The notes: generated by a model not told the origin, from the letters alone. Positions 94 to 56,130 are shown, counted from the stretch's first letter. The stretch: DNA of 56,535 nucleotides from Acidobacteriota bacterium (GCA_027064125.1 JAMOQF010000055.1:1-56535), one strand, 5' to 3'. Made by a program: numbers and translations.

Positions 94-388
94 AGCAACT
101 TTTCCGATTTACGACCTGTGATTTTAGATTTTTAGAGAAAAAATATGTAAAATTAAAGGTGTCAGGCAAAAGTTTAAGAGAAATTTAAGGGGCTTTTAGG
201 GTTGGCATGCAAAAATGAACTCAAAACTGGCAGAATTAAAGTCCTCTGGCAAAATCAATGATTTAATGATTTAAGGAAAATTCCTTAGATTGAGTTTAAC
301 TTCTTAAATAACTTGAAAAAGGAAGTTAGATATTTAAAAAAAATCCGACGATATTTGTAGAAAGTAAAGGAGATATTAATGTGTCTGG
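94..388 (+). repeat. Intergenic mosaic repeat locus R1: one GGTGTCAGGCAA word plus one ~100-bp unit
   Basis: GGTGTCAGGCAA at 158-169 is followed by a unit with GGCA/TGGCA boxes. Positions 185-215 match 20606-20636 at 30 of 31 nt. Confidence 0.75.
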
Positions 389-1138
389 CTACAATTTTTT
401 ATTTATTTTTTCTTCAAATTTCTTTGAATACCTTATAAAAATAGAAAAGGAAGAAAAAGAACAAAAAATTAATCCCCTTATTCCATCTAAAAAACCCAAT
501 TTTAGGATATAGGATTTAAAGAATCTAAAGGGAGGGGAAAAGAGTAGTTTAAAAGTTGAAAAATCCCCACTTTTTTTATCAATTTCTGAATAGAGAATTA
601 TTTTTTTCAGGTGATGATCAATACTTTCGTAACTATAGTGGTATAGATCTCCCTTTAACTTTTTAGTCTTTAATTTTTTAGAAAATATTAAACCTTCGTG
701 GAGTTTTTTGTTGTCCCAACTGCAAAAATTTTTATTGAAGAGCCTGATCTTATATTCTGGATAATACCCTCCATGATTTAGAAATCCATTTAAGTACCAT
801 GTTTTTCTTGCTATTTTGTACACAGTATTTTCATCAAGCCCCCTCTTACACTCATCAATTATGGAATCTCTTAAATTTTTAGAAACAACCTCATCCGCGT
901 CTATTGATAGGATGAAGTCATTTTTTGCCATTTTATTTCCAAAGTTTTTTTGATCGCCAAATGTGGTAAACTTTCTTTGAAATACAGATGCCCCTAATTT
1001 TTTTGCAATTTTTACTGTGTTATCCGTTGAAAAGGAATCAACAACTACAATTTCATCTATAAAATCAAGACTTCTAATACATTTTTCAATTTTTCTTTCT
1101 TCATTGTAAGTTATTATTACAGCAGATATTTTTTCCAT
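389..1138 (-). CDS. Family 2 glycosyltransferase
   Basis: N-terminus MEKISAVIITYNEE...VVVDSFSTDNT and the DADE motif are typical of the GT2 (GT-A) fold. The start overlaps the pepF stop by 1 nt (TAATG). Confidence 0.85.
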   Translation of the reverse strand: MEKISAVIITYNEERKIEKCIRSLDFIDEIVVVDSFSTDNTVKIAKKLGASVFQRKFTTFGDQKNFGNKMAKNDFILSIDADEVVSKNLRDSIIDECKRGLDENTVYKIARKTWYLNGFLNHGGYYPEYKIRLFNKNFCSWDNKKLHEGLIFSKKLKTKKLKGDLYHYSYESIDHHLKKIILYSEIDKKSGDFSTFKLLFSPPFRFFKSYILKLGFLDGIRGLIFCSFSSFSIFIRYSKKFEEKINKKL

Positions 1139-2898
1139 TAGTTAAATCTTTCAAATTCTTCAATCATCTCTTCGATAAATTTAATTCCCTTTTCCCAGAA
1201 GGATCTTTCATTTAAGTTTTCGCCAACAATTTCAGCAAGTTGGTATGGGTTTTTACTCCCACCACTTGAAAGAATTTCCTTGTAGTTTTTTATGAAGTTT
1301 TCCCTTTCTTCCTCTTTATATTTTTTAAAAAGGGAAATTACAAATAATTCTCCAAAGGAATAGGCATAGCAGTAAAATCTGTAGTGAAAAAAGTGGGGAA
1401 TTGAAGACCAATTCCACTTTTGAACTTCAAAAAATTCAATTGAATCACCATACATTCTTTCCATTTCTTCCCACCAGATATTGCACATATCTTCTTCCGA
1501 TAGAAAACCTTCCTGACATCTTTTATGGGCTCTGTATTCAAATAAAATATACATGATTTGTCTGTATACAGTGGCAATTATGTCTTCAATTTTTGAGGAT
1601 AAGATATTTAAAAGGACATCCTTCATTTTGGTTTCATTTTTTAATTTCTCAGTAAGCAACATTTCTCCAAAAACCGATGCAGTTTCAGCAACCACAAGGG
1701 GAGGATGAAAATTTAGGTAACTATTTTTAGAGGCCATTATATCGTGTATACCATGTCCTATTTCATGAGCAAGAGTGTATACATCTCTTAATTTGGAATT
1801 GTAATTTGTCATTATAAAAGGATTTACCTCGGGGGATATCCCATAACAATACGCTCCCCCCATCTTCCCCTTTTTGATTTCCGCATCAATCCACTTTTTT
1901 TCAAAGAAATTTTTAGCAAGATTCCCAAATTCTTCGTCAAAAATTCCATAGGCGTCTATAACCATCTTAGCCGCTTCTTCATAGGGAATGTTTTCAAGTT
2001 CTTTTCCCATGGGGGCATATAGATCAGAACCCTTTAATTTTTTCTTTCCAAGCAATTCTGCTTTTTTTCTATAATATCTTTCCACCAGTGAATAACTATT
2101 TGTTATTACATCAACCATTAAGTCTATTGTGTCCTTTTCTATATGGTTTGCTATGTGGGTTGGTTCCATGGGATCTGAATACTTTCTGATTTCACATTCC
2201 ATGGCATGATCTTTAATTATGTTGTTGTAAATTGAGTTTAAAATTTTCCCAAATTCTTCATATTTTTTATAATAGGTAATTGTTGCCCTTTCCCTTACTT
2301 TTTCGTCAGGGTGATAGAAAAGGCCTCTAATTTCTGAACCAGTTAGTTTTTTTATTTCACCATCCATTTCAAATGTATAGGTAAAATCAGAAGTTATTTC
2401 GCTATAAAGTCTTTCAAAGGCATCGACACCTGTAAGATCTTTTTTCTCAATTAGAATTTCTTCTCTTTCGCTCAGTTTATGTGATTTTTCTCTCCAGAGA
2501 TTTTTAAGGTAATTTTTGTATTCTAAAAGTTCCTCTGAGTTTAGAAATTCCAAAAATTTGTCATCTTCCATTTTGAGAAGTTTCAACTCAAAGAAGGCGG
2601 TTTTCTCATATATTTTTGTTGAAAATTCTTCCGATTTAATCAGAAGTTGTTTGTAATTTCCATTTTGTGTATCTGTTGAAAAAAGCAAATATGCATAACC
2701 TCTTACTTTGCTTATCATTGTGAGAATTTTTTCAAGATCCTTTAATCCATCTTTTACCATTTTTGCCGTTTCAAGATTTTTTCTGTATTTTTTTTCAAAT
2801 TCTTCTGCGAGTTTTAAAGCCTTTTTAAGGTCAAGTTCCACCAATGGATCATCAATTCCGCTATAAAGTGGAGTAAGATCCCAATTTTTGCTATACAT
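1138..2898 (-). CDS. pepF: Oligoendopeptidase F-like M3 family metallopeptidase
   Basis: 586 aa with the zinc motif TLAHEIGHGIHD. Length and architecture fit M3B PepF. Confidence 0.85.
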   Translation of the reverse strand: MYSKNWDLTPLYSGIDDPLVELDLKKALKLAEEFEKKYRKNLETAKMVKDGLKDLEKILTMISKVRGYAYLLFSTDTQNGNYKQLLIKSEEFSTKIYEKTAFFELKLLKMEDDKFLEFLNSEELLEYKNYLKNLWREKSHKLSEREEILIEKKDLTGVDAFERLYSEITSDFTYTFEMDGEIKKLTGSEIRGLFYHPDEKVRERATITYYKKYEEFGKILNSIYNNIIKDHAMECEIRKYSDPMEPTHIANHIEKDTIDLMVDVITNSYSLVERYYRKKAELLGKKKLKGSDLYAPMGKELENIPYEEAAKMVIDAYGIFDEEFGNLAKNFFEKKWIDAEIKKGKMGGAYCYGISPEVNPFIMTNYNSKLRDVYTLAHEIGHGIHDIMASKNSYLNFHPPLVVAETASVFGEMLLTEKLKNETKMKDVLLNILSSKIEDIIATVYRQIMYILFEYRAHKRCQEGFLSEEDMCNIWWEEMERMYGDSIEFFEVQKWNWSSIPHFFHYRFYCYAYSFGELFVISLFKKYKEEERENFIKNYKEILSSGGSKNPYQLAEIVGENLNERSFWEKGIKFIEEMIEEFERFN

Positions 2899-2907
2899 GA
2901 CATCCTC

Positions 2908-5619
2908 CTATTGGGAAATTTCCATTAGAAGTATTTGCAAATCTAATAAATTTAATTTCCCATCTCCATTTATATCTCCCACATCTTTAAGATAGTTGTT
3001 TAAATATAGATTTTCCACCAGGAGATTTTTAAGGAGCAGGACATCCTCTATGTTTTTATTTCCATCTCCATTTAGATCTCCAGTAAAGTTTTCAAGGGAA
3101 CATGTTGGGGTTATTTCTTCAATGCTTATATCGTCTATGTACCATCCACTTCCGCCATTTGATTGATCTGAAGAAGCTCTGAACCTGATATATATTGTAT
3201 TTCCACTGAAAGAAGATAGATTTATAATACTTTCCTTTAATTGGGTGGAAAGTGATCCTCCACTAAAGGCCATTCTGCCTCCAATGGGAGAACCATATTT
3301 ATCAGAAATTTTCATATTGTATCCATTTTGAGTGAAGTAATTGCCCAGGTCCTGAAAGTTGTTTCCTCCATCTGTTGATATTTCCACAACTCCTCCATCG
3401 TATCCAATTTCAAAGGAATAGGTATGGAAAAAGTGAAGGTAATACAATTTTTCATTTGAGAGATCTATGGGGCCTAAGGTTAAATAACTATCCTGAATCT
3501 GAGGTGCATCTATTGTAAAATAACTGTGGTTTTGGGAGTGAGAGTAGGGGGTTTCCTTCAATTGCCATTCATAATTCGTTGTTCCAGCCCCTATTGATAT
3601 CTGCCAGAGAGAACTTCCACCAGATTCAAGATCATCTTCAAATATGTTATTGGAAGATATTTCTCCAATTTGTAGTTCTTCTTGAAAGTTAAATTCAAGT
3701 CCATCATTGTAAACTTTTATAAGGAATTTTGCCTTTTCTCCACACTGAAAATCACTACCTATTTTAAATATTATGGAATTTTCACAATGTATAATTGCCC
3801 CGGTGTGAGGTAAATTGTTAATTGAAAGGAGATTATTTAAAATTTTTATTGAAGGGTCTTCTGGAATAATTTTTATAAAGATTTTTCCAGTATCTACTGT
3901 TCCTGAGTTGTAGAAACTTAAATCCATTTTGTAAATTTCACCCGGATCTGCCTTTTCATCTCCATTGCCATCCAATTCCGAAAAGTCTACATTGTATAGG
4001 TTTACGAAGGGACCGTGGCTTCTACAATCTCCTTCTGAAAGTATGCCCCTGTTGTAGAAAATATTACATATTAATCCGGTATGATTTCCATTGTATAAAT
4101 TTTCATCTGCTTCAATTATTGAGAGGGCTCCATTTCTAAAATTTGTGGATGGAGGCATATGGTATTGTCCCTCAAGTACAATGGAATCCGTTATTTCCTT
4201 GCCCAGTTTCATAAATATTTCTCTAAGGCAGGATGACCATATCTCCCCATCGTCATGGATTTCACCATCCATGTCATCCGGGTACTTTTTATTTGAATCC
4301 ACCCTTCTCAGACATGGTGGAATTGAATTTGAATAGGAGGTGGAATCCCACTCTCCAATACAAAATGGATCAAAACCATTTGCAACACTTATGTTATAGG
4401 TGTTTGAGAAGGCCCAGTAATCACCGAAGCCTTCTCCTATGGCTCCCGATTCTCCTGTGGTGACAAACGCGTTTTTATTTTGAAAGTATTGAATTGAGTG
4501 CCCCATTTCATGAAGAATTATGTCTGCATCCTCTGCGTCGTCAACTCCGCCATCTCCATAAGCTATATAAGGGCTGCTTCCAGCAGAAAAATGGGATTGA
4601 TCCGCTCCATTTACTCCGTGGGGATCCACAGAAAGGGGATAGGGATATATGTCAAAACCTAAGGATTTTAAATATCTACATGCTTTATCAATCCAGTAAT
4701 ATACCATGACTGCTTCAAATCCATCATCTTCTCTGTAGTAGTTGAAGGAACCATCCTGTGATTTTGGTGGTGCAATATATGGATATTCAATGTCTTTAAC
4801 TTTTACATTTGGTCCATTTAAAATAAATAGGTCATTTTCATCCTTAGATATATCTTTTAGTAAAACTTCTTGATATGCTCTTTCTGAAATGGCGTTATTA
4901 CTATCTCCCATATCCCTCAAGTTTATATTTCTGAGTGAATTTACTGGATTTGGATTGAATATTCTTCCATTTCCATCGAAATAATAGATATTTGAGGTTT
5001 CAAAAAGTATTTTCCCATCAAGGAGGGAAATAATATATTTTACATCTAATGGAGAATTTTTCTTTTTTAATTCCACATAAGTTGAAGGTATTAAATTGTT
5101 ATCCTTTCCTATGTAAAAAACTTTATAGAGGTTTTTGAGGGAAAATTTTCTGCCATATTTTTTTTCAAAACTTTTTTCCGCTATTTCCAGGGAATCAGAT
5201 TCATTTAATTTTTGTGGATGGGAGATTTTGGTGTTGAATACCTTTTCGAAAATTGAGTAGAGTTCTTTTTTATCGTTAATGTGGAGATCTATATAAGAAT
5301 TAAAAACTTGAATTCCCTTAAAATTTGCCTTAAATCTCAAATGAATTCCACTTAAACTTGTCCATTCCTCTTCAAGGTTGAAGTTTTTGTAAATTTTTTC
5401 TATTTTCAATGGGTATTTTAAATTTTCAAGAATTAGTCCCGGATTTAAAAGTTCATTATTTTGCAGTTTGTAATCTTTCAATTTAAGGAAGCATGGAAAA
5501 TTTTTCTCATAAGAAATTTTAATTTCTTTTCCTTCAAAATTTATAAACTTATAGTTTGAAGAAAATAAAAAGGTAATTGAGAGTAAAGTAGTAAATAGGA
5601 AAAAGATTTTTTTGAACAT
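2908..5619 (-). CDS. Secreted zinc metalloprotease (thermolysin clan, M36/fungalysin-like) with a C-terminal MAM/lectin-like domain and a dockerin-type module
   Basis: Signal peptide MFKKIFFLFTTLLSITFLFSS. HEMGH plus the downstream GEGFGDYWA (gluzincin third ligand). The C-terminus is GDLNGDGNKNIEDVLLLKNLL...GDINGDGKLNLLDLQILL, a duplicated calcium-loop dockerin signature. Confidence 0.75.
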   Translation of the reverse strand: MFKKIFFLFTTLLSITFLFSSNYKFINFEGKEIKISYEKNFPCFLKLKDYKLQNNELLNPGLILENLKYPLKIEKIYKNFNLEEEWTSLSGIHLRFKANFKGIQVFNSYIDLHINDKKELYSIFEKVFNTKISHPQKLNESDSLEIAEKSFEKKYGRKFSLKNLYKVFYIGKDNNLIPSTYVELKKKNSPLDVKYIISLLDGKILFETSNIYYFDGNGRIFNPNPVNSLRNINLRDMGDSNNAISERAYQEVLLKDISKDENDLFILNGPNVKVKDIEYPYIAPPKSQDGSFNYYREDDGFEAVMVYYWIDKACRYLKSLGFDIYPYPLSVDPHGVNGADQSHFSAGSSPYIAYGDGGVDDAEDADIILHEMGHSIQYFQNKNAFVTTGESGAIGEGFGDYWAFSNTYNISVANGFDPFCIGEWDSTSYSNSIPPCLRRVDSNKKYPDDMDGEIHDDGEIWSSCLREIFMKLGKEITDSIVLEGQYHMPPSTNFRNGALSIIEADENLYNGNHTGLICNIFYNRGILSEGDCRSHGPFVNLYNVDFSELDGNGDEKADPGEIYKMDLSFYNSGTVDTGKIFIKIIPEDPSIKILNNLLSINNLPHTGAIIHCENSIIFKIGSDFQCGEKAKFLIKVYNDGLEFNFQEELQIGEISSNNIFEDDLESGGSSLWQISIGAGTTNYEWQLKETPYSHSQNHSYFTIDAPQIQDSYLTLGPIDLSNEKLYYLHFFHTYSFEIGYDGGVVEISTDGGNNFQDLGNYFTQNGYNMKISDKYGSPIGGRMAFSGGSLSTQLKESIINLSSFSGNTIYIRFRASSDQSNGGSGWYIDDISIEEITPTCSLENFTGDLNGDGNKNIEDVLLLKNLLVENLYLNNYLKDVGDINGDGKLNLLDLQILLMEISQ

Positions 5620-6744: not shown

Positions 6745-6899
6745 ACTATTCACCTTAGAAATTTTATAAAGTTAATAATAAAATAGGTAATACTCTTAAG
6801 TCAAGATGTTATGATTTCCCAAAATCCGTGATTGCTATATAAAAGGCTCTGTAAATGTGTTAAAATAAAGTAATTTTAAAAAATTACCCTTAACCTAAA

Positions 6900-7835
6900 A
6901 GGGAAACACACCATAAACTTAGTGTTTGAGGGATTGTAGGAAAAGATATTTTCATTTATTAACTACATGATTAAATTTCAGGCAGTGTAAAATTAATTGT
7001 GTCAAAAAGGAGAAATCTCTTTTCGGGAAAAAGGGATTAAAATTAACCTTGATTGAAAATTCCCTAAAAGGACTATACCTATGAGTGACTTAATTTTTAC
7101 CTGGGTTTCAGAACTTTTCAAAAGGTATCAGGCAAGTAATAGGTAATACAGGTAAGTAAGTAAAAAAAGAAAGATGGAAGGGGACAGACCTAAATCTTGA
7201 AAATGTGTCAGGCAAAAATTTAGATGGCTTTTGAGGGGGAGGCAAATAAAAAAAGGATAAAATTCTGGCAAAAAGAAAATCCTTCTGGCAGAAATCAAAT
7301 GATTAAAATTTTTTTCTTTCTATAAGCCTTTAGGGGTATTTAGGGTGGGCAGATAGGAAGAAATTAAATTCTTGCAAAGATGAAATCCTTTGGCAAAAAA
7401 CAACAATTAAAGCAAATGCCCTTTTTCATCCTATAAACCTTTGGGGGTATTAGGGGTAGGCAAATAAGGAAAAAACTTAAAACTGGCAATACCTAAAAAT
7501 TTTCTGGCAAAAATTAACAATTAAAATAAAATCCCTTTTCTCTTCTATAAGCCTTTTATGGGCCTTATGGGCCTTTTGGATCGGGTAAGTAAGAGGAAAA
7601 ACTAAATTCTGGCAAAGATAAAATCTTTTAGCAAAAGTCAGCGATTAAATAAAATTCTTTTTTACCCTATAAATCTTTAAAGGATATGGAAAAAGGGACA
7701 GACCTGAATTTAAAATTGGACAAGTAAGAAAAAGGAATGAAGGGGAATTGTTCTCATACAAAATTGAAAGACTTCTTTTCTTTTATTTTAACAAATCTTA
7801 TTTACTAAATAGAAAATTTCTTTAATCTTTACTTA
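6900..7835 (+). repeat. Intergenic mosaic repeat locus R2: left boundary module, word motifs, four tandem units, right boundary module
   Basis: The left module 6903-7123 is homologous to 39507-39590 and, inverted, to 33640-33800. GGTATCAGGCAA is at 7124, GGGGACAGACCTAAA at 7180 and GTGTCAGGCAA at 7205. Units span 7216-7668. GGGACAGACCTGAA is at 7695. The right module ~7775-7835 is homologous to ~40220-40262. Confidence 0.85.
7216..7668 (+). repeat. Tandem array of four degenerate ~104-122 bp units
   Basis: Unit heads CTATAA(G/A)CC lie at 7320, 7431, 7545 and 7667 (periods 111, 114, 122). Each unit carries G-rich TTTAGGGG..TAGGG..GGCA followed by two (T)CTGGCA boxes, spaced about 25 and 20 bp, and ends in CCCTTTT. 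Confidence 0.85.
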
Positions 7836-8942: not shown

Positions 8943-9971
8943 ATGAGATTTTTTGGTAGAATTACATTTATAGGTATACTCTTTTTTTACCTTTTTTCAG
9001 GTTTTTTCTTTTCTGAGAAAAATTTAATACTGTTAAATTCGGGTAGGGATTACATCTACCTTTTTTCACCACAAAAAGAAACAGTAATCAAAAAGTTAGA
9101 AATCTGCGATAAGGAAGCCTCATGCACGGATATAATTTCCTTTATGAATAATTTTTTTGTAATTTTGCACAGGATATCATACAACACTGACGGCAGGGAT
9201 ATTTATGTACTGGACAAAGTAAGTGGTAATCTACTTAGAAAGATACCAATTGCAAAATCACCCTATCATTTTTTAAAAATAGATAAATTTCGATATTTAA
9301 TATCCCATACTCTTCTTGAATATGATGTGGAGGGGTTTATTTCAGAAATATTTAATATAAAAAAGGAATCGATAGAGAAAAAGTTTGTTTTTAGGGGAAT
9401 CCCTGTTGGGGTCATTTCCTTTTTAAATGGTAAATTTGCAGTGATTGAAGATGTAAGGGGGACTATTGGTGGAGTCGAACTTGTGGAATTGTTTGGAAAG
9501 AGAAAATTTCTCTTAAAAAATAGGTTTATTTCCTCAAATATTTTTTCCTGTAATGGGAAATTGTTTTGTGCGGTAAACCATTTTGGGCCCCCTAAAAGTA
9601 GAAATTCGCTTCTTCAAATCTTATTTGATAAAGGAGGAGGACATACAAAGGTAAAAATTTTAAAGAAATTTGAAATTTCAGATCCCATTATTCTTGGAAC
9701 GGCTAAAAATTATTTGTTTATAGGTTTTAATAACCATTCTTTTACAAATAACTACAATAGATTTGGAATTTATGATGTTAAAACCGGTAGTTTTACTCAA
9801 TTTAGCATATGTTATGGACCTGAATCCATTGTTTATTGTGATGGTAAGTTGTATATTGCCTGCATTCAAAGAGAAAGCATAGCAATCATTAACCTTAAAA
9901 ATTACGATGTAAAGGTTATCGATGTCTCAGATTGTGAAGTTGGTTTTTCAAGAATTAGAATGGGATATTAA
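8943..9971 (+). CDS. Hypothetical secreted or membrane-anchored protein, possibly beta-propeller-like
   Basis: 342-aa ORF with an N-terminal hydrophobic segment FIGILFFYLFSGFFF. No family motif recognised. Confidence 0.5.
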   Translation: MRFFGRITFIGILFFYLFSGFFFSEKNLILLNSGRDYIYLFSPQKETVIKKLEICDKEASCTDIISFMNNFFVILHRISYNTDGRDIYVLDKVSGNLLRKIPIAKSPYHFLKIDKFRYLISHTLLEYDVEGFISEIFNIKKESIEKKFVFRGIPVGVISFLNGKFAVIEDVRGTIGGVELVELFGKRKFLLKNRFISSNIFSCNGKLFCAVNHFGPPKSRNSLLQILFDKGGGHTKVKILKKFEISDPIILGTAKNYLFIGFNNHSFTNNYNRFGIYDVKTGSFTQFSICYGPESIVYCDGKLYIACIQRESIAIINLKNYDVKVIDVSDCEVGFSRIRMGY

Positions 9972-10035
9972 GTTTAAATTTGACTTTTTTCTCCCATATT
10001 ATTAAACTTTTGATTTTTAGAGATAAATATCACCT

Positions 10036-11052
10036 ATGGATAAGAATGTAAAAAAAAGAGTTATCTTTATATTTAAACTTGTTGTAACAGTTCTTCTCCT
10101 CTTTTATCTTTTTCACACCAAAGGGGTTAACTTAAAAAAGTCAGTTGAAATTCTTGCAAGATCAAATTATATATATTTTTTCCTTTCTCTTTTTCTTCTT
10201 CTTTTTGGACAATTTATATGTTCCTACAGGTGGAAGGTTATCTTAAAAGCCATGGATATTGACATTTCTCTTTTTAGATTATTTCAGTTTTATTTAATAG
10301 GTATGTTTTTTTCCCTCTTTTTGCCTTCAATTGTGGGAGGGGATTTTGTGAAAATATTTTATGTAAAGGAAGAAAGTGGAAAACCCATATCCTATATAAT
10401 TGCTTCAATATATCTTGAAAGGGCTACCGGATTTTTCTTTTTGATACTATATGGGATATTTGGTGCCTTGATGTATAAAATAAATATAACTTCAAAGGAA
10501 ATTCCACTGTTGAGTAATTTTGGTATCAGAGAAATTGATATTGTATACATTCCCATTTTCTTTTTGCTTCTCTTTGTGTTGGTAAACATAGTTGTTTTTA
10601 CATCAGGACTTTACAATATAGCCATAAAGATGCTTAATAGGCTAAATCTGAAAAAGTTTTCGGAAAAAATTTCAATACTGCACGATGCCACAAGGATTTT
10701 TAGAAATAAACCTTCTGTGTTGATAGTTCCCCTTGTTATTTCTGCGATAAATATTTTTTTTGTAAGTGTGGAAAACTATTTAATAGGTATTGGAATAGGA
10801 ATAAAGGCTTCCTTTTATGCCTATATGATTATTATATCGCTTATGTCCACAGTGGTTATGCTTCCAATTAGTATAAATGGGATTGGTTTGCGCGAAAATA
10901 TATTTGTGGTCCTTTTTTCTCTTATTGGAGTTGATCCCAATAGTAGTTTTTCTCTATCACTTATATCCTTTTTAGTTGTTGTCCTTTCAGCTCTGCCGGG
11001 GGGAGTTGTGTATTCACTGCTTAAAACAAAACCAGTGCCTGAAGAGATTTAG
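10036..11052 (+). CDS. Flippase-like / lysylphosphatidylglycerol-synthase TM-region family (UPF0104) membrane protein
   Basis: Polytopic membrane protein. The N-terminal KLVVTVLLLFYLF...FICSYRWKVIL resembles the LPG_synthase_TM family as I remember it. Confidence 0.65.
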   Translation: MDKNVKKRVIFIFKLVVTVLLLFYLFHTKGVNLKKSVEILARSNYIYFFLSLFLLLFGQFICSYRWKVILKAMDIDISLFRLFQFYLIGMFFSLFLPSIVGGDFVKIFYVKEESGKPISYIIASIYLERATGFFFLILYGIFGALMYKINITSKEIPLLSNFGIREIDIVYIPIFFLLLFVLVNIVVFTSGLYNIAIKMLNRLNLKKFSEKISILHDATRIFRNKPSVLIVPLVISAINIFFVSVENYLIGIGIGIKASFYAYMIIISLMSTVVMLPISINGIGLRENIFVVLFSLIGVDPNSSFSLSLISFLVVVLSALPGGVVYSLLKTKPVPEEI

Positions 11053-18585: not shown

Positions 18586-18659
18586 TGTTGTTTTTATTTG
18601 ATCACATTTTTTGTCATTTTAAAGAATTTTAAATTGTGGATTTGAAAGTAGAAAAATAT

Positions 18660-21567: not shown

Positions 21568-21568
21568 A

Positions 21569-22078: not shown

Positions 22079-22079
22079 T

Positions 22080-26303: not shown

Positions 26304-26316
26304 TAGATAATATTCT

Positions 26317-40262: not shown

Positions 40263-40264
40263 TT

Positions 40265-43500: not shown

Positions 43501-43740
43501 GGAAATTTCAAAAAGAGTGGGGAATTAATGGAAATTTCAAAGAGAATGGTTTCAAAATATGGTGAAAATCTTTTGGAGGAGAAGTTTTTTAAATCGTTTG
43601 TTAATTTATATTTTGGTGACCGAAATTCCTTTAAGTTTATTGAAAAATTAATTAATTCAAGGAAATACTATAGGGCAAATTTTTTAAATTTGTTTAATAT
43701 GTTTAAAAATTATAAACTTTCTTTATTTCCAGCAAGGTAA
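40549..43740 (+). CDS. Hanks-type Ser/Thr protein kinase with one TM segment and a ~730-aa TPR-like helical-repeat domain
   Basis: GKGGTAEVY, VAIK, HRDIKPSNILV, DFGIA and SPEQ. TM segment FYLLLSLLIISILSALFIYFY. The C-terminal part is helical-repeat rich. Confidence 0.9.
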   Translation: MRTFIQELEKSGQYKILKLIGKGGTAEVYLAEDRILNRKVAIKFILSFDEESKEQFLKEARIQAQIEHDNICKIFEVGEVLEIPYIVMEYIDGKPLDYFSNKISLEKKVSLILKVCDVLIEAHRNGVIHRDIKPSNILVEEKESGELKPYLMDFGIARKQNAPGKTTTGTVVGSPNYMSPEQAMGKVHELDRRSDIYSLGATFYHLICGKTPFDAQSIITAIYCAINKEPTSPRKISPAIPKDIEAIVLKCLEKNPDRRYQSARELADDLKRFLNGEPVLAQNPTFAYRFYKRVRKNKKFYLLLSLLIISILSALFIYFYNRILQEKRARLILEFDRKANEIENLLEIAYLLPPHSIAKRKNEVLKKIKALEEKIMELNEKEKAIGFFAMGKAYFYLGEYNKSLRYLNRAWKNFKTGYVAHFIALVNSSIYLEKYQDYSLLSDKKEREAKLKEINLKYRDPALKFFKLSDIDWPEGASFKKGIFCLLEKKYNEAILNFEKVIRENPAYYRALVLEGECYLNLYVNSKGEKKDYYFKRAIESIKRAILIGRSDPSLYVKLARYYEKKMITLIYNSNRDLMPIFKKIESNLKIAIKIDNRNKRAYEEMTSAYWRISEYLAFKGDKGARRVVEKGLKITEYAAKLFPNSFDIFSSRISFYILTINYFRPEKKKMEKLIDEAIDFLKKSEKLFPSTKSILYKKGELYSAIGYYKFDNGSNPEIFLKESIKVYTEIIDNFKEDIEIAIFNRAVDEYYFAKSYYHFDGKDPCEYLKKSIRDYKKVLEMDPGDYLTMINLSELYYFRFSFNLLNGSNLKRDLKRIEYYYNCARKINENYRFTYLLKLEFLIAKMEYLNLMGSFNKRKVDETINFLEFIKNKFSIDEATYFSYLSLIYRANLNPDLNFIKSYEKNLLIPYLKRDERDIYLNMDGFFTPYFIFLGKSDFSNYSIVTKMLDVFKRVKKFEGEKYTSDRELLKILLFCSAYYLKNGNFKKSGELMEISKRMVSKYGENLLEEKFFKSFVNLYFGDRNSFKFIEKLINSRKYYRANFLNLFNMFKNYKLSLFPAR

Positions 43741-45334: not shown

Positions 45335-45500
45335 GGCTTTATTTCCTTTTTAAAAGAAATTAGACCTCTTCAATTTTAGGAAGTGTAAAAGTGAATTTTA
45401 ACATATGTGTTAATTTTTTGGAAAATAATTTTTTAAAATTTGTTTAAAAAAAATTTTTTTATGCTAAAATTTTTCAACTAATTACTATTTGGAGATTTTA

Positions 45501-50660: not shown

Positions 50661-50704
50661 AGAAATTTTTCGTTATTAATTTTTGAAGTAGAAAGTTAGT
50701 GGTT

Positions 50705-51277
50705 ATGGATGACATGGAACTGATAGAAAGATGTAAATGTTCAGATCCAGATGCATGGAATGTTCTGGTAAAAAAGTATTGGAATGATGTTTATAGGATT
50801 GTTTACAGATTGGTCTTTGATAAAGAAATTGCAAAGGACATAACTCAGGAGATTTTTTTAAAACTTATGGACAACATAAAGATTTTCGATGTTAAGAGGG
50901 GAAATTTTAGGAGTTGGTTGAATTCCATTTCAAAAAATTACACCATAGACTATTTGAGAAAAAATAAAATGCGTTTACTTCAACAAAAAGAAGATGTGAG
51001 TGAATTGTGCAAATGGGGAGTTGGCAGCGAAGCACATGAAGATCCCTATTTAAGATTAAGGAGATATGAAAAAAAGGAGTTTTTGAGAAGTTGTCTTATG
51101 GAACTTAAGGAGGATTACAGAACAGTTATAGTGATGAGGGATATTGAAAATCTTTCCTATGAGGAGATGGTGGAAGTACTTGGAATACCCCTTGGAACCC
51201 TTAAATCAAGGTTAAATAGGGCAAGAATTGAACTTGCCAAAATAGTTCTTTCAAGAAAAAAAAGTATAGGTGAATAA
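50705..51277 (+). CDS. ECF-type RNA polymerase sigma-70 family factor
   Basis: Region 2 (VYRIVYRLV..KEIAKDITQEIFLKL) and region 4 (LSYEEMVEVLGIPLGTLKSRLNRAR). Confidence 0.9.
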   Translation: MDDMELIERCKCSDPDAWNVLVKKYWNDVYRIVYRLVFDKEIAKDITQEIFLKLMDNIKIFDVKRGNFRSWLNSISKNYTIDYLRKNKMRLLQQKEDVSELCKWGVGSEAHEDPYLRLRRYEKKEFLRSCLMELKEDYRTVIVMRDIENLSYEEMVEVLGIPLGTLKSRLNRARIELAKIVLSRKKSIGE

Positions 51278-51279
51278 CT

Positions 51280-51816
51280 ATGAGATGTGAGTATTTTGAA
51301 GAATTAATTACTGAGTATCTGGATGGGGAACTTCCTTTACATTTAAAGGAAGAGTTTGAGAAGCATCTTTTTGAATGTAAGAATTGCAGAGATCTTTTTG
51401 AACAAATAAAGGAAAATATGGAGTTGTTGAGGGAATTTAAGGAGGAAGTGGAATTTGATTTTCAGCCTGAAAGTAATATTTTCATCACCAGAAGGCATAA
51501 AAAGAGGGAGTTTATTAAGAGATTTCTTGCCACCGCTGCAATTTTTATTATGGGAATTTTTATGTTAAGGGGGGTGGTGGCTTTTAGAAATGTCTCTTTT
51601 AACTCCCTTTTAATTGATACTGCACAAAGTTTTATGTCTGTTGCTGTTAATTCTCAAAAATTGATTTTTAATGCTAAAAATTTTGGGGAAAGGGCTCTAA
51701 ATAAATTTGATGGGGTAAAGAACGATTTTTCCAGGCACTATAGAGAGTTTGAAAAGGAATTTAGTATGAACAAAAATCCTAATTATAGAGAAAAAAATTT
51801 TAAGATAGGGAGGTAA
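51280..51816 (+). CDS. Zinc-binding (ZAS-type) anti-sigma factor with one TM segment
   Basis: Lies immediately downstream of the sigma gene. H-x3-C-x2-C motif HLFECKNC. TM segment FLATAAIFIMGIFML. Confidence 0.75.
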   Translation: MRCEYFEELITEYLDGELPLHLKEEFEKHLFECKNCRDLFEQIKENMELLREFKEEVEFDFQPESNIFITRRHKKREFIKRFLATAAIFIMGIFMLRGVVAFRNVSFNSLLIDTAQSFMSVAVNSQKLIFNAKNFGERALNKFDGVKNDFSRHYREFEKEFSMNKNPNYREKNFKIGR

Positions 51817-51819
51817 AAA

Positions 51820-52449
51820 ATGAATTGCTTTTATCATGGGGATAGACCCGCAAATAACTTTTGTAACAACTGTGGTAAACCTCTTTGTGATGAGTGTAAA
51901 AGAGAGGTTAAGGGGAGAATTTATTGTGAAGATTGTCTTTATGGGGCAATATCTTCACAGGAAAGGTTAAAGGCAATTGAAAACAGGTCTCCTATTCCCG
52001 GAATTTCCTTACTTCTTGCTTTTTTGCCGGGACTTGGAGCAATTTATAATGGGGAATATTTAAAGGCAATTTTCCAGTTTGTGATTTTTTGTTCCCTAAT
52101 TTTTCTTGCGAATATCACCGGTTTTTTCTTGTTTGGTCTGGGAGCAGCGCTTTACTATTTTTACACAATTTTTGATGCCTATAAGAGTGCCAATGAGATA
52201 AGGATAAAGGGAAGAAAAATTGAATCTGAAAGTAAATCTGTAGGGGTTTACAGAGGTGTCTTTCTGATCTTGCTTGGTATTTTGTTTTTGCTCAATAACT
52301 TTGGGCTTTTGAGTTTTTCCTTTATGAAGATTTACTGGCCATTTTTGTTGATTGTTTTAGGTGCTTATTTGATTTATAGAGAGGTTGCCCAAAAAAATAA
52401 AAAAGAAGAAATTGCCAAAGTAGATGGTGGGGAGGAAAAAAATGAGTAA
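51820..52449 (+). CDS. Membrane protein with an N-terminal zinc ribbon (B-box-like) and a LiaI/LiaF-like TM region
   Basis: CFYHGDRPANNFCNNCGKPLCDECK...YCEDC. Multiple TM segments. The C-terminal GVFLILLGILFLLNNFGLL...YWPFLLIVLGAYLIY motif recurs in the next gene. Confidence 0.6.
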   Translation: MNCFYHGDRPANNFCNNCGKPLCDECKREVKGRIYCEDCLYGAISSQERLKAIENRSPIPGISLLLAFLPGLGAIYNGEYLKAIFQFVIFCSLIFLANITGFFLFGLGAALYYFYTIFDAYKSANEIRIKGRKIESESKSVGVYRGVFLILLGILFLLNNFGLLSFSFMKIYWPFLLIVLGAYLIYREVAQKNKKEEIAKVDGGEEKNE

Positions 52450-54193
52450 AGGAAAAAAGGGAACCATCTTTGGGGGGATTTTATTAATAATTTTGGGGAT
52501 TTTACTTCTTTTTCAAAATATATATGGTGGTTTCTCAATATCCAGAATTATATTAAAATTTTGGCCCCTTATTCTTATTTATATAGGTATTAAGAAAATT
52601 TATCTTTATTTTGACAGGGATTCTAAAAATTTTGAAAAGAGAAGTTTTTCGGCGATTTTTGTCTATTTGTTTCTTGGGAGTGTCTTTTTGGCTAACAATT
52701 TGGGGATGTTTTCTTTAGATGTGAAAATTGTTAAACTCTATTGGCCTCTCATTTTTATAGTTGTTGGACTTGGAAAAATAGTGGACCATTTTATTGGAAG
52801 GCAAGTTAGGATTAAGGGAAGTGAGGTCATCTTTTTAATATTTATAATACTTGTAGGGCTTAGTAGTTCTCTTGTGTTTAAAATTGAAAGGTGGGTGAAT
52901 GGAAGATGGGGAAACGTAAATATTGCTGTGGAAAGGGTTATAAATAAGGGTGAAATTGGTGGAAAATTGGTTGAAAGGTTGAAATTTGAAAATAAGATTA
53001 AGGTGGATGGTATAAACAAAATTTTTTTAGATGTAAATGATTCAAACATCTCTTTTGTAAAGGGAGAAAGTGAAGGTTATATAAAAGTTGTGGAGACTGT
53101 TAAATCTTTTGAGGGTAAAGGTAGAAAATTATTAAAGAGGGACTTTTCAAACAAAATATTTAAGGAAGGCTCTGTCTTAAAAATAAAAACGCCTATGATA
53201 AGCGGCTATAGAGGTTTTAGGATTTATGAAAGAATATTACTTCCCCGCGTCATTAAAAATGTCGTTGTTAATTCTCATGGGGGAGATATAGAGGCCAGAG
53301 GATTAGATGCTGATATTTTAGTTGAAAATTCCATAGGGGATATTGATTTTATAGATATAAGGGGAAATGTTAAACTTAACAATTTTTCTGGAAATGTTTT
53401 TTTAAAGAGAATTGGTGGAAATGTGGATACTGAAATAAAAAATGGGAATTTAACATTGTTGAATTTGAGTGGGGATTTAAATTTGAAGGAGAGTTTTTCA
53501 AATATTGAAGTTAAAAATGTAAATGGAATTTCAAGGATAAATTTAAATTATGGAAATTTTTCGGGGAATACATTTAAAAATTCAACTTTTTTAAAATCCC
53601 ATTCCTGTAAAGTGAATATTAAAAAAGTTGAAGGGAATATTGATATGCAGTTTAAGTTTGGAGAGGTAAATATTTATGATGTAAAAGGAAATGTTTCATT
53701 TGTTGGGAAATCTGATTCTCTTGAGATGGATAAAGTTAATGGCAAAATTACCGGTAAGTCTGAATTTTTAAAGATTAGAATTTTTAATGTGATGAAGGAT
53801 ATTGAGATCACAGGGAAAAATAGTGATTTTTTTGTAAAAAATGTTTCTGGTACCACCTTTGTTGAAAATAAATTTGGATCTTTTCAAGGTGTAGATTGTG
53901 GTAGAAATGTGGTAATAAAGAATTTTGGTGGAGATTTGAAATATGGAATAAATAAGAACTTAAAAAGTGTTTCTCTTTTTGCTAAAAATGGAAATATTTA
54001 TCTTTCTGTGGATAAAGGACTTAAATTAAACTATAAATTTTCAGCATCTTTTGGAAAAATATTTGTTCCTCGTGATTTTTCTAACAAAGTCTTAAAAAAG
54101 GGTGCAAATAGTTATTTTACAATTTTTAATAAGAATATATCTAAAAATGTGGTCTGCAATTCCACTTATGGAAATATATATTTTAACCGTTGA
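52442..54193 (+). CDS. Membrane protein with N-terminal LiaF-like TM repeats and a C-terminal DUF4097/toastrack-like beta-helix repeat domain
   Basis: ATG 52442 follows GGGGAGG. LLIILGILLLFQN...FWPLILIYIGI and LANNLGMF...YWPLIFIVVGLG. Many repeats of G(D/N)(I/V).(I/V/L)....G.(I/V/L). Confidence 0.6.
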   Translation: MSKGKKGTIFGGILLIILGILLLFQNIYGGFSISRIILKFWPLILIYIGIKKIYLYFDRDSKNFEKRSFSAIFVYLFLGSVFLANNLGMFSLDVKIVKLYWPLIFIVVGLGKIVDHFIGRQVRIKGSEVIFLIFIILVGLSSSLVFKIERWVNGRWGNVNIAVERVINKGEIGGKLVERLKFENKIKVDGINKIFLDVNDSNISFVKGESEGYIKVVETVKSFEGKGRKLLKRDFSNKIFKEGSVLKIKTPMISGYRGFRIYERILLPRVIKNVVVNSHGGDIEARGLDADILVENSIGDIDFIDIRGNVKLNNFSGNVFLKRIGGNVDTEIKNGNLTLLNLSGDLNLKESFSNIEVKNVNGISRINLNYGNFSGNTFKNSTFLKSHSCKVNIKKVEGNIDMQFKFGEVNIYDVKGNVSFVGKSDSLEMDKVNGKITGKSEFLKIRIFNVMKDIEITGKNSDFFVKNVSGTTFVENKFGSFQGVDCGRNVVIKNFGGDLKYGINKNLKSVSLFAKNGNIYLSVDKGLKLNYKFSASFGKIFVPRDFSNKVLKKGANSYFTIFNKNISKNVVCNSTYGNIYFNR

Positions 54194-54213
54194 TTTCTTG
54201 AAGGAGGTAAAGG

Positions 54214-55077
54214 ATGAGAAAATTTTTGCCATTTTTAATCTTACTGTTATTTTCAATATTTTTTTTGACGGGATGTGTTGAAGAATTTTACATGAATCCA
54301 CCTCATAAATCGATATTTCAAAAGGAAGTTAATTTTTCAGGGGAAAAAAGTCTTAATATTACTTGTAAATCGGGGGTTGCTGATTTAAAGATAGCTCCCA
54401 TTGAAACTAATAGTAAAAAACTTTTTAAACTTGAGGTGGTATATGACGATGCCAATCAAAAACTCCATTATGATTTTACAAGAAATGACTTAACAATTAC
54501 CCTTGAAGGTAGAAAATCTTCAAAGCACTTGAATTCCACCATTACACTTTTCGTTTCTAAAAAAGTTCCAGTTTCTTTTGATATAAGGGTTGGTGTTGGA
54601 AATGGCAATATAGATTTAACTGGACTTAAAGTGAAGAGTTTTAATATAAAGACAGGGGTTGGGGATACTGATATTTTTTGTAAAGAGAAAAATGAAATGG
54701 TGTGTGAAGGTATTACCATAAAAAATGGTGTTGGGGATTTGAGCTTTATTGGGCTTGGAAATTTAAATTGTAAGGAATTTGAATGTACAGGAGGTGTTGG
54801 AGATTGCCATATTGAAGTTGGTGATAGATGGAAAGGAGAAGTTAGGGGAAAGGTAGAAAGTGGCGTCGGAGATGTTGAAATATTTTTTCCAGAAAGTGTT
54901 GCTGTAGAGGCTAGGGTTGTAGGAAGCAAATATACTTCATCTGTTTCGGTTGATTATGATGTTTTTGAAAAGTCCAATGAGCATTTGTATATTACAAGGG
55001 GATTTAAGGAAAAGGATAAGAAACTCTATTTGAAAATAGTTTCAGGCGTGGGAGATGTTAAAATAAGAGTAAAATAG
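54214..55077 (+). CDS. Lipoprotein with a toastrack (LiaF C-terminal / DUF2154-like) domain
   Basis: Lipobox FFLTGC. Five GVGD(T/L/C/V) repeats (GVGDTDI, GVGDLSF, GVGDCHI, GVGDVEI, GVGDVKI). GGAGG RBS. Confidence 0.6.
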   Translation: MRKFLPFLILLLFSIFFLTGCVEEFYMNPPHKSIFQKEVNFSGEKSLNITCKSGVADLKIAPIETNSKKLFKLEVVYDDANQKLHYDFTRNDLTITLEGRKSSKHLNSTITLFVSKKVPVSFDIRVGVGNGNIDLTGLKVKSFNIKTGVGDTDIFCKEKNEMVCEGITIKNGVGDLSFIGLGNLNCKEFECTGGVGDCHIEVGDRWKGEVRGKVESGVGDVEIFFPESVAVEARVVGSKYTSSVSVDYDVFEKSNEHLYITRGFKEKDKKLYLKIVSGVGDVKIRVK

Positions 55078-55090
55078 GTGGTAATTAATT

Positions 55091-56038
55091 GTGGTAAAGA
55101 AGGGAATTGTCTTACTGTCAATGGGTGGAGCTGAAAATAGGGAAGAATTGAAACTTTTTTTGAAAAACATGTTCTATGACAGGAATATTCTGCCCATTAA
55201 GAATAATTTTTTAAGGTTGGCTGTTTCAAGTTTTATTGCAAATATTAGGGTCAATAGGGCATATAAGAACTATATGGAAATTGGTGGAAGGTCTCCTTTA
55301 AAAGAAATAACTTTTAAAATAAGAGACAAAATGAGGGAAAAAATAGATGATGAGGTATTTATAGCCTTCAGGTATTTACCTCCTTTTAGTTATGATGTTA
55401 TAAAGAAAATGAAAGGAAGGGGGATTGAGGAAGTTTTTCTTCTTCCTCTTTATCCACATAACTCTATTTCCACTGTGAAGTCATCAATTGATGATTTTTA
55501 TAAATGGGTAGATAAGTTTAATTTAAATTTTGAAATAAAAGTTATGAAGCCATTTTATAAAGAGGAAGATTATAATGATTTAATTTGCAAAGGGATATTG
55601 GATTACGTAGGTGATAGGGATTGTGGTGATTTTATACTCTTATTTTCTGCCCATTCAATTCCTGAAAAATTTATTGAATATGGAGATACTTATAAAGAGG
55701 AAGTTGAAGAGCATGTGGAAATTTTAAGTAAAAAATTAGGAAAAATGGGAGCGAACTTTAAAAATATAGTGCTTGGCTATCAGTCAAGGTTGGGACCTGT
55801 TAAATGGGTGGGACCTGCTCTTGAAGATGTGTTGAAAAAATTGGAAGGTGAGAAAGTAATTATTTATCCTATTTCCTTTGTGGTGGACAATATTGAGACC
55901 CTTTATGAACTTGAAATTGAATATGAAAAAATTGCACATGATCTTGGTATCCTTGAATATAAGGTGATAAAATGTCCCAACGCTTCCGATGAATTTATAG
56001 ATTTCCTCATAAAAGGTGCCAGGCACGATTTTGATTAA
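55091..56038 (+). CDS. hemH: Ferrochelatase
   Basis: GIVLLSMGGAENREELKLFLKNMFYDRNILPI, LPLYPH, and SAHSIPEKFIEYGDTY motifs. GTG start. Confidence 0.9.
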   Translation: MVKKGIVLLSMGGAENREELKLFLKNMFYDRNILPIKNNFLRLAVSSFIANIRVNRAYKNYMEIGGRSPLKEITFKIRDKMREKIDDEVFIAFRYLPPFSYDVIKKMKGRGIEEVFLLPLYPHNSISTVKSSIDDFYKWVDKFNLNFEIKVMKPFYKEEDYNDLICKGILDYVGDRDCGDFILLFSAHSIPEKFIEYGDTYKEEVEEHVEILSKKLGKMGANFKNIVLGYQSRLGPVKWVGPALEDVLKKLEGEKVIIYPISFVVDNIETLYELEIEYEKIAHDLGILEYKVIKCPNASDEFIDFLIKGARHDFD

Positions 56039-56054
56039 TTTGTTGTTGAATGTT

Positions 56055-56130
56055 ATTAAATGTGCCGGGCAATTTATTTTATTTTTAGATAAGATCAGGT
56101 GTATTAAAATGGGTGTCTGGCAAGCAGATA
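56055..56130 (+). repeat. Degenerate copies of the GTGTCAGGCA word starting another repeat locus (R7) at the window end
   Basis: GTGCCGGGCAA (~56063) and GGTGTCTGGCAAG (~56111) lie just downstream of the hemH stop. The remaining ~400 bp to the window end are ORF-free and G+T-rich. Confidence 0.45.

Follow-up and report, generated by a model that had tools for sequence, protein, structure and literature searches.

Why do the long gene-free spacers of this contig from an Acidobacteriota bacterium share one vocabulary of repeated words, and to which known class of elements, if any, do these words belong? The whole stretch of DNA that was analysed (56,535 nt) is called the window here. A first-pass annotation had described an unclassified family of repeats that recalls BIME/REP mosaics, and had listed a non-autonomous mobile element, arrays of protein-binding sites and structured non-coding RNA as its candidate roles.

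Extent and organisation of the repeat family

The repeats form a genuine family, confined to intergenic DNA and far more frequent than chance would give. The family is built from three modules. Module A is GGTGTCAGGCA, module B is GGGGACAGACCT, and module U is a 113-nt purine-rich unit that includes three (T)GGCA boxes spaced about 27 and 21 nt. Of the 10-mer core GTGTCAGGCA, the window has 14 exact copies (12 +, 2 −), all intergenic; allowing one mismatch raises the count to 23 (20 +, 3 −), 20 of them intergenic. The full 12-mer GGTGTCAGGCAR has 8 exact copies versus 0.00 expected. For the second word, GGGGACAGACCTGA, there were 1 exact copy, 7 copies with at most one mismatch (6 +, 1 −) and 8 with at most two (7 +, 1 −), all intergenic; the last count agrees with the 7 forward copies and 1 reverse copy first reported. 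The nhmmer search for U (about 113-115 nt) gave 16 matches at E < 1e-5 and 20 at E < 1, every one on the + strand of the window, which is close to the roughly 20 copies claimed, and TRF found a 114-nt period at 7311-7556. An inverted head has 3 copies in the window, at 18925 (+), 20047 (+) and 33258 (−). The near-identical distant blocks were also confirmed: 185-215 and 20606-20636 are identical at 30/31 positions, and 18674-18699 recurs exactly, in reverse complement, at 33311-33336.

The repeated DNA amounts to 3,684 nt when 3 or more hits are required and to 4,470 nt when one is enough, namely 6.5-7.9% of the window, and the family occupies 40-47% of the non-coding DNA. The earlier estimate of about 7 kb or 12% was overstated about two-fold and is roughly the summed length of the spacers. 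Family members were found in seven spacers; two of these (36753, and 56113 with one mismatch) hold a lone word only. As had been noted, the window includes no cas gene and no transposase gene, and the largest array (18674-20942) has no ORF longer than 66 aa. The members in the window are as follows.

156-286, +: small array; A (159-168), then one truncated U (185-286)
7116-7830, +: array in the divergent TAL/Peptidase_C92 spacer; A, (GTAA)n A-run, B, A, four U, B, terminal module. A at 7125 (one mismatch) and 7205; B at 7180-7193 and 7694-7707; U at 7220-7328, 7330-7439, 7440-7553 and 7568-7672; the terminal module recurs at 40217-40273
18674-20942, +: largest array, in the convergent cvpA/greA spacer. 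Exact A at 18674, 18837, 19229, 19972, 20409 and 20479; A with one mismatch at 18906, 19255, 19475 and 20012; B at 18870, 19172, 19432, 19823 (two mismatches) and 19933; U at 19009-19119, 19270-19384, 19385-19562 (with a B-A insert), 19563-19676, 19678-19787, 20142-20249, 20250-20331, 20494-20604, 20605-20719 and 20720-20811; inverted-head modules at 18925-18951 and 20047-20073; a right-flank module ends at 20942
33230-33411, −: short cassette in the opposite orientation; inverted head 33258-33284, A 33327-33336, B-like word GGGGCCAGACCTGA 33352-33365, A 33402-33411
36753-36762, +: lone A word directly past the stop codon of a dockerin-protein gene
39705-40273, +: array in the divergent rplM/kinase spacer; weak U (39705-39797), A (39839), U (39854-39967), A (40047), A (40077), weak U (40124-40210), terminal module (40217-40273)
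56113-56122, +: lone A-like word GTGTCTGGCA, one mismatch; weak member

In the same-species contig L145, homology to the window begins only at 185, within the U unit of the small array. A further 105 U units were found on 22 other contigs of one metagenome. We also examined a 244-kb set, consisting of the window and same-family contigs that were chosen for carrying the repeat. In this set, GTGTCAGGCA has 78 copies in non-coding DNA versus 0 in 188 kb of coding DNA, which supports the earlier statement that the words are intergenic.

The array grammar is A(1-3)-U(0-7)-B, and the modules are co-oriented in 40/43 arrays. The transitions are B to A (46, median gap 23 nt), A to U (44), U to U (65, gap 4), U to B (30) and B to U (4). 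Runs of U have 1-7 units, and the A-U(n)-B composite is found up to about five times per spacer. In the alignment of U, conservation is highest at the columns of the boxes and words, and the linkers are variable. The (T)GGCA boxes look like A half-sites.

Variation and growth of the arrays

The arrays might have been created by short-read metagenome assembly, since 18/24 ends of complete contigs fall in arrays, the assemblies of relatives have N gaps at word clusters, and the divergence level shifts inside arrays. However, four independent assemblies (L112, L113, L141 and L146, from NCBI, ENA and Logan) have the arrays at 98.7-99.9% identity with equal module order. Thus, the arrays are not assembly artefacts, and this explanation is extremely improbable.

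Strains differ in the largest array by a 31-bp tandem duplication in L112 and by 178 extra bp in L113. The latter difference is flanked by a 12-nt direct repeat, as in a deletion between direct repeats. Across six strain comparisons, 11 indel events were in arrays versus 3 elsewhere, and near-identical strains differ by gain or loss of whole modules. In addition, the largest array is 1.9 kb long in the sister population L153.

Tandem 113-nt units at many intergenic loci, strain polymorphism and the concentration of indels in arrays are all consistent with a plain minisatellite (VNTR, MIRU-like) that changes by slippage and unequal recombination only. However, adjacent U units are 66% identical on average versus 67% between contigs, and the closest pairs, some of them 85-89% identical, sit on different contigs. 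Neighbouring units resemble each other no more closely than distant copies do, unlike those of a young slippage array, so simple slippage fails to explain array growth. Furthermore, slippage is unable to seed one three-module grammar at dozens of unlinked loci. The recent spread or homogenisation suggested before is supported in part, by the 85-89% identical units across contigs and by the module indels between strains.

The uniform unit length, the single orientation within an array and a weak 6-bp pairing that is possible between the A and B words on the − strand might point to small structured non-coding RNA genes arranged in arrays, or to one long processed transcript. However, RNAalifold, run on 95 units, found no consensus fold for either strand or across the unit junction (0.0 kcal/mol). 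The Rfam search that had been proposed gave nothing at gathering scores and chance-level matches only (E about 1). In addition, promoter-like and terminator-like sites are at shuffle level. The arrays are found in convergent, divergent and tandem spacers, and their orientation is unrelated to that of the flanking genes. Thus, the non-coding RNA role is very unlikely.

Palindromic words, RAYT genes and relatives

Both words have palindromic forms of 13 nt, which are common to the species of the window and its relatives: A′ is GGTGC-CAG-GCACC and B′ is GGGGT-CAG-ACCTC. They are alike in layout (5-bp stem, CAG triloop). The changes between them, at positions 3/11 and 5/9, are paired and retain the palindrome. 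The word head is T(T/G)AG. The predicted folding energies are −4.5 kcal/mol for A′, −2.2 for B′, and −12.9 and −7.7 for inverted B′ pairs. The array forms of A and B are broken palindromes (0 and −0.2 kcal/mol). Since the palindrome is lost, most copies in arrays may have ceased to serve as RAYT substrates. The 244-kb set has 54 array-type and 15 palindromic copies of B, and 46/54 of the former versus 5/15 of the latter are near a U.

At least one transposase is present elsewhere in the genome. RAYT (REP-associated tyrosine transposase) genes, which encode Y1/HUH enzymes acting on single-stranded DNA, were found on one contig with the same arrays and on one contig from the assembly that holds window-identical contigs. 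The first (L136:4106-4852) matches Pfam Y1_Tnp (E = 5e-7) and carries the motifs HUH (HFH) and Y..NPVRA. Over the whole profile it scores 62.7 bits with the NCBIfam REP-associated tyrosine transposase versus 21.7 bits with IS200, and the former score falls below the equivalog cut-off of 80 for REP_Tyr_transpos. A profile built from 30 homologs had 4ER8 (TnpA-REP) as its sole PDB match, and the AlphaFold model (pLDDT 86) had 4ER8_A as its top Foldseek match (TMt 0.74). The link between L136, the RAYT-1 contig, and the genome of the window consists of a common repeat family and a common G+C content only; no overlapping unique sequence was found. The RAYT locus L147 belongs to an assembly whose other contigs include some that match the window at 99.5-99.9% identity, and that assembly encodes the paralog RAYT-2. 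Each genome has several RAYT paralogs, which have diverged to 50-66% identity, as for Group 3 RAYTs (PMC5581495). The L136 and L150 loci are syntenic, which points to the vertical inheritance typical of RAYTs (PMC5581495).

B′ was found within 300 bp upstream of RAYT in 5/5 loci examined (L136, L147, L149, L150 and L152), and additionally downstream in 3 loci. These copies are mostly direct, not inverted; an inverted pair is upstream in L150. Next to RAYT genes, at L150 2816/2886 and L136 5470/5487, inverted B′ pairs form long hairpins. Because B′ lies beside every RAYT gene examined, it is the likely RAYT substrate. No locus with full A′ flanks was found among the RAYT loci examined, so A is linked to RAYT by its similar design only. 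As the lineage has RAYT genes and the palindromic ancestor of the second word adjoins each RAYT locus examined, the family can no longer be called unclassified.

These results also bear on two of the alternatives. For a minisatellite, the association of B′ with RAYT would have to be incidental. However, B′ adjoins all five RAYT genes and palindromic B′ is about ten-fold concentrated on the RAYT contig, which makes this explanation quite unlikely. The family also resembles MITEs derived from a DDE-type insertion sequence, being short, non-coding, dispersed and intergenic, with high-identity copies at distant loci. However, the units and arrays have no terminal inverted repeats at their borders (the sole inverted matches among modules are those of the inverted-head module with unit heads), target-site duplications were not seen, and neither the window nor the annotated RAYT contig yielded a DDE transposase. 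A MITE origin is therefore hardly credible.

In the relatives, no array lies in the orthologous spacers. Opposite the largest array, which takes up 2.5 kb of the window, the spacer is 12 bp in L115 and 5 bp in L116, both of which are fully syntenic. The orthologous TAL/Peptidase_C92 spacer is 290 bp in L115, where it holds one GGTGCCAGGCA, and 181 bp in L116. The U unit is absent from all relative loci, and the A′ clusters of relatives occupy other spacers, one being 3 bp in the window.

The arrays could instead be functional scaffolds, on which a nucleoid-associated or regulatory protein binds the boxes and words, kept by selection. The conservation of boxes and words within U would fit this explanation, and so would the A word sequence conserved across three species. 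In addition, arrays changed by 0.39% between strains versus 0.64% for third codon positions, and in two comparisons between populations, the intergenic tracts with arrays resemble each other far more closely than the genes beside them do. However, the spacers that hold words differ between species and the orthologous ones lack arrays, the arrays take any spacer type and either orientation to genes, and whole modules are gained or lost between near-identical strains. At the strain level, arrays change no slower than coding DNA overall or other intergenic DNA. The cross-population similarity is also explicable by recombination tracts or chimeric contigs, and no candidate binding protein was identified. 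Thus, selection for protein binding seems unlikely to us.

Comparison with known systems

Since array module B corresponds to the palindrome flanking RAYT genes, the arrays are an unusually elaborate relative of the E. coli REP/BIME repeats, not a new kind of element. The likeness to BIME/REP and the role as a non-autonomous mobile element are thus the earlier readings favoured by the evidence. We propose, with a probability of about 0.6, that this is a lineage-specific REP/RAYT-type family grown into BIME-like composite arrays that are mostly selfish or neutral DNA. In the species of the window, derivatives of A′ and B′ are joined to the 113-nt U. RAYT would have seeded the words in intergenic DNA. 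Probably the arrays then took up copies drawn from a pool across the genome, or recombined with one another, rather than growing by slippage in place, and microhomology deletion and small duplications may remodel them.

E. coli REPs are high-copy extragenic short palindromes in composite mosaics, with a RAYT gene flanked by the repeat; classically, two REPs flank RAYT genes in inverted orientation (PMC2817692). The present family, like E. coli REP/BIME-2 and its RAYT (YafM, TnpA-REP; 4ER8), has a vertically inherited Y1/HUH gene flanked by the repeat, here mostly in direct copies. It also has two related word types (compare Y and Z2) and, like BIME-2, a tandemly repeated composite unit whose copy number varies between strains. 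REP families exceed 100 copies per genome, and here 78 A and 54 + 15 B were counted in the 244 kb of window and repeat-selected contigs. Unlike E. coli REPs, the palindromes are 13 nt instead of 20-40 nt, the GT(A/G)G head is absent, and array copies are mostly non-palindromic. Furthermore, A and B are in direct order in co-oriented arrays, whereas BIMEs alternate; U forms most of the array, and arrays reach 2.1 kb and fill about 45% of the intergenic DNA of the window. In Pseudomonas fluorescens, RAYTs mobilise REPINs, in which two inverted REPs across a short spacer make one long hairpin. A few inverted B′ pairs beside RAYT genes are like these. However, the arrays are not doublets: 40/43 have one orientation, and their dominant copies are non-palindromic.

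IS200/IS605 elements and PATEs, their non-autonomous derivatives, have two similar small hairpins at opposite unit ends on one strand and insert 3′ of a fixed short target. They share with the present family a Y1/HUH enzyme and the lack of terminal inverted repeats and of target duplication. The tight junction of B, about 23 nt and A resembles a right-end/left-end junction of IS200/IS605, and the direct A...B layout with a fixed B-to-A gap is like that of a PATE, although the array hairpins are decayed and neither a cleavage motif nor a target motif could be defined. Unlike in IS200/IS605, the enzyme is of RAYT type by its scores and is not carried within the repeats. It is conceivable, but in our view improbable, that A-U(n)-B composites are a RAYT-dependent non-autonomous element that inserts preferentially beside a resident copy in the IS200/IS605 style. 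Two mini-hairpin ends on one strand would then define the element, and arrays would be assembled from unrelated pool copies. This would explain why neighbours are no more alike than random pairs, why A follows B after about 23 nt, and why arrays lie at divergence switches between co-occurring populations. If so, this would be the first RAYT-type system seen to build kilobase-scale tandem arrays.

The REP/RAYT-type family that we favour also resembles, by description, other modular intergenic mosaics and strain-variable tandem units. In Neisseria dRS3/RS and pneumococcal BOX, the internal units are variable (RS between dRS3; BOX A-B(n)-C), and mycobacterial MIRU-VNTRs have 40-120 bp tandem units at many loci in strain-variable number. 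As in MIRU-like VNTRs, several intergenic loci carry tandem units here, and the number of copies varies from strain to strain. To our knowledge, the dRS3/RS, BOX and MIRU families have no tie to RAYT and no sequence relation to the family in the window. BOX and MIRU units are shorter than U, and their arrays are much smaller.

Composition and order of the repeat arrays

The G+C content of the window is 32.3%, and about 9.3 kb of it lies outside ORFs. The first-pass annotation had described a repeat family filling about 7 kb of intergenic DNA, and its members proved to be genuine. For the first short word (A), the core GTGTCAGGCA was found in 14 exact copies (12 on the + strand and 2 on the - strand) and in 23 copies with ≤1 mismatch, and 0.00 matches to its 12-mer form were expected from shuffled sequences. 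The second word (B, GGGGACAGACCTGA) was found in 7-8 copies at ≤1-2 mismatches. In addition, a profile made from seven clear copies of the long unit (U) detected 16 copies at E < 1e-5 and 20 copies at E < 1 in the window, all on the + strand. Both long-range identities reported earlier were reproduced, all good copies are intergenic, and the window contains neither a transposase nor a cas gene, as had been claimed. The largest array has no ORF longer than 66 aa, and public gene calls put no genes in the arrays. However, the amount of repeat had been overstated. Family-matching DNA amounts to 3.7-4.4 kb, or 6.5-7.9% of the whole window and 40-47% of the non-coding part. Family members do occur in seven spacers, but two of the seven carry just one word each.

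The family extends beyond the window: a scan of metagenomes with the pattern B-N(10-40)-A gave 22 contigs, all from a single JGI metagenome (Ga0256842). They comprise 187 kb with 32.7% G+C, none of the 22 overlaps the window, and they carry 105 further U units. We found no overlap in unique sequence between these contigs and those of the metagenome-assembled genome (MAG), so it is not provable that both come from the same species. Across all 244 kb, the A core occurred 78 times outside ORFs and 0 times within the 188 kb of ORFs. All modules had a single orientation in 40 of 43 arrays, and their order was constrained. The transitions were B to A (46, median gap 23 nt), A to U (44), A to A (43), U to U (65, gap 4 nt) and U to B (30), and B to U just 4 times. 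Therefore, the composite can be written as A(1-3) - U(0-7) - B, repeated. The U consensus is 113 nt long and rich in purines on one of its strands. It has a CTATAAACC tail and three conserved (T)GGCA boxes, which on inspection resemble half-sites of A.

The arrays lie in convergent, divergent and tandem spacers and in both orientations relative to adjacent genes. No association was seen between the direction of an array and the local strand composition or the orientation of genes (concordance in 25 of 43, r = 0.17, P = 0.28). When a 596-Gb genome collection was scanned with the 15-mer AAAGGTGTCAGGCAA, the matches were all single chance ones to genomes without any relation, as such a pattern is too short for a collection of that size. 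A literature search for the words found nothing relevant.

Some further modules and one spacer of the window were also recorded:
6897-7045 and 39508-39583: second, unrelated-looking repeat (…GGGATTGTAGGAAAAGATATTTTCATTTATTAACTACATGATTAAATTT…), located upstream of the main arrays in two divergent spacers; present again on metagenome contigs
18925-18951 and 20047-20073 (+ strand), 33258-33284 (- strand): inverted-head module, to which the GGGGATTGTGGG motif of the second repeat is similar
7706-7830 and 40217-40273: terminal module (…AAATCTTATTTAC(T/C)AAA…) common to the downstream ends of two arrays; in both cases a + strand gene follows at about 250-300 bp
20812-20990: right-flank module (GATGTTTCAAGAGCCTTACACAATTAA…) after the last unit, with an internal 20-nt direct repeat (ACACAATTAAGTTGACATTA / GCACAATTAACTTTACATTA); conserved in a second occurrence on another contig, L126 (about 430-470)
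45012-45488: 477-bp spacer lacking family members, whose first ~250 nt read as an extension of the upstream beta-helix ORF (44397-45011, - strand); the start of this gene may be miscalled, or the gene may be disrupted

The arrays were reproduced at 98.7-99.9% identity in four independent assemblies, and thus they are not an assembly artefact. The suggestion that they encode a structured non-coding RNA was not supported, as Rfam gave no match at gathering scores and only chance-level ones at E of about 1. RNAalifold on 95 distinct units found no structure on either strand or at the unit junction. A B-A hairpin was unconvincing, with at most a 6-bp stem on the - strand, one pair of which is G-U (mean z -1.2). 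Promoter-like and terminator-like sites were no more frequent in the arrays than in shuffles. Two other candidates were rejected: a sigma-54 promoter reading of the TGGCA boxes, in which inspection showed no GC at the -12 position, and a CsrA-type sponge, for which no GGA motif is conserved. Meanwhile, the MITE reading was set aside because there are no terminal inverted repeats at the borders of units or arrays. The largest array had no blastn match in plasmid and phage collections, and a scan of viral contigs found no B-A cassette.

Palindromic B words flank RAYT genes

On one contig with typical A/U/B arrays (L136), the gene at 4106-4852 (or 4160-4852) codes for a protein of 230-248 aa that has a Pfam Y1_Tnp domain. 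Its top NCBIfam match is 'REP-associated tyrosine transposase' (RAYT), covering the whole profile at 62.7 bits compared with 21.7 bits for IS200, and it has the HUH (HFH) and Y..NPVRA motifs. The sequence alone had no phmmer match in PDB. A profile of 30 homologs had a sole PDB match, 4ER8 (E. coli RAYT in complex with a REP hairpin), and the confident structural model (pLDDT 86) also had 4ER8_A as its top match. In addition, several homologs are named RayT in the JGI annotation.

The flank of this gene contains TAGGTCTGACCCCAT, the reverse complement of ATGGGGTCAGACCTA, which is the 13-nt palindromic form of the B word (B'). In a relative, the RAYT ortholog lies among the same genes, with six or seven exact copies of GGGGTCAGACCT around it, including one inverted pair. 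A paralog with 66% identity (contig L147, 4892-5581) comes from an assembly that also contains contigs matching the window at 99.5-99.9%, and B' lies 150 bp upstream of this paralog. Two more paralog loci are arranged alike, so that B' was found at RAYT in 5 of 5 loci. B' was absent from 52 kb of the relatives' other sequence, and 8 of the 15 palindromic B' copies in the data of the window's species are on the RAYT contig. Immediately downstream of this first RAYT gene are two genes for tRNA-Ser, with anticodons TGA and GCT (L136, 4912-5104; locus L150, about 3795-3985). The relative keeps this layout, and RAYT and the tRNAs are together enclosed by B' words.

B' (GGGGT-CAG-ACCTC) and the palindromic form of A (A', GGTGC-CAG-GCACC) share a common layout, and the differences between them are paired changes (positions 3/11 and 5/9) that preserve arm complementarity. 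As single-stranded DNA, A' folds at -4.5 and B' at -2.2 kcal/mol, and inverted B' pairs fold at -12.9 and -7.7 kcal/mol. The dominant array forms are GGTGTCAGGCA (78 copies) and GGGACAGACCT (54 copies, 46 of them near a U). Each has lost the loop-closing pair and has no fold.

Lineage specificity and polymorphism of the arrays

Just two relatives match the window's PurC protein at 72-73% identity, and the next matches, among them the nearest named ones, are at about 60% (Kryptonia and others), which indicates a deep and uncultured lineage. Both relatives show full synteny with the window across about 20 kb. The cvpA|greA spacer measures 12 and 5 bp in the relatives versus 2.5 kb in the window, and the TAL|C92 spacer 290 and 181 bp versus 1.3 kb. 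The U unit was not found in the relatives. The A word of the relatives is palindromic, GGTGCCAGGCA(C), and forms direct clusters in other spacers, one of which measures only 3 bp in the window. The words are therefore old and shift between spacers, and the window's species alone has U and the big arrays. Scaffold gaps (N runs) of the relatives lie inside A' clusters or near RAYT (L116, 14440-14549 and 17493-17592; L152, 4292-4390), and the repeats break these assemblies as well.

Among near-identical strains, one contig carries a 31-bp tandem duplication. Another has 178 bp more than the window. A 12-nt direct repeat bounds this segment, implying that the window's lineage lost it by microhomology deletion. 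In six strain comparisons, there were 11 indel events in arrays and 3 elsewhere. The substitution level of arrays was 0.39%, compared with 0.64% for third codon positions and 0.27% for the remaining intergenic DNA, and there was no clear sign of purifying selection on the arrays. An early hint of it (1.06% versus 2.4% at third codon positions) was gone after pooling the six strain pairs. The mean identity of units was 66% for adjacent units and 67% between contigs, and pairs with at least 85% identity were found between contigs only. Therefore, the arrays are not young products of slippage.

The divergence level shifts abruptly at an array in two comparisons of co-occurring populations. In L128 versus L134, genes are about 84% identical and the array tract 91-100%. 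In the sister population L153 versus the window (17724-26724), the two sides of the cvpA|greA array are 97.9% and 90.6% identical. These switches could stem from recombination junctions within arrays, from selection acting on intergenic DNA, or from metagenome contigs being chimeric. Meanwhile, the match of the same-species contig L145 (about 99.5% identical elsewhere) begins at position 185, inside a U unit, and window 1-184 has no counterpart. Beyond the match (L145, compared over 9558-10517), L145 continues with an array of 1.16 kb and a gene for a CLC channel, and at this place the window has the end of another ORF. The cause is either rearrangement at the array or chimerism of a contig end. 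Of the 24 ends of complete contigs, 18 are inside arrays. For practical work, the arrays break up metagenome assemblies of this organism and may yield chimeric contigs.

A REP/RAYT-type reading and other genes of the window

The best-supported reading is that the arrays are a REP/RAYT-type family. Short palindromes flanking vertically inherited RAYT genes would presumably be processed by RAYT, which may seed the words. In one species, the palindromes would have been joined to the long unit and expanded to directional BIME-like arrays. Array growth would then proceed by recruiting copies from elsewhere, through either transposition beside a resident copy or recombination between arrays. The arrays are probably largely selfish or neutral DNA.

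The defining traits of canonical REP and BIME include length, a GTAG head and alternating orientation (PMC2817692), and the present family differs from them in all three. Therefore, it is best regarded as a new variant working like REP/BIME and not as a member of the enterobacterial families. In this lineage, the palindromes of the REP/RAYT system are minimal (13 nt), and there are several RAYT paralogs. REP/RAYT studies have mostly been done in Proteobacteria, and to our knowledge, the multiplication of REP/BIME and the cellular role of RAYTs are largely unsettled. A natural comparison is available here between solitary or loosely clustered words in the relatives and long-unit arrays making up nearly half of the intergenic DNA in one species. 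This contrast could reveal the route from simple REPs to mosaic arrays.

In addition, three secreted-looking proteins of the window end in dockerin type I domains (2908-5619, 33883-36747 and 43710-44315). One of them is an M36 fungalysin-like peptidase, and the window has no evident cohesin-bearing scaffold. Furthermore, 50699-55077 holds a compact envelope-stress-like cluster with an ECF sigma factor, a zf-HC2 anti-sigma factor and three LiaF-like/DUF4097 'toastrack' membrane proteins.
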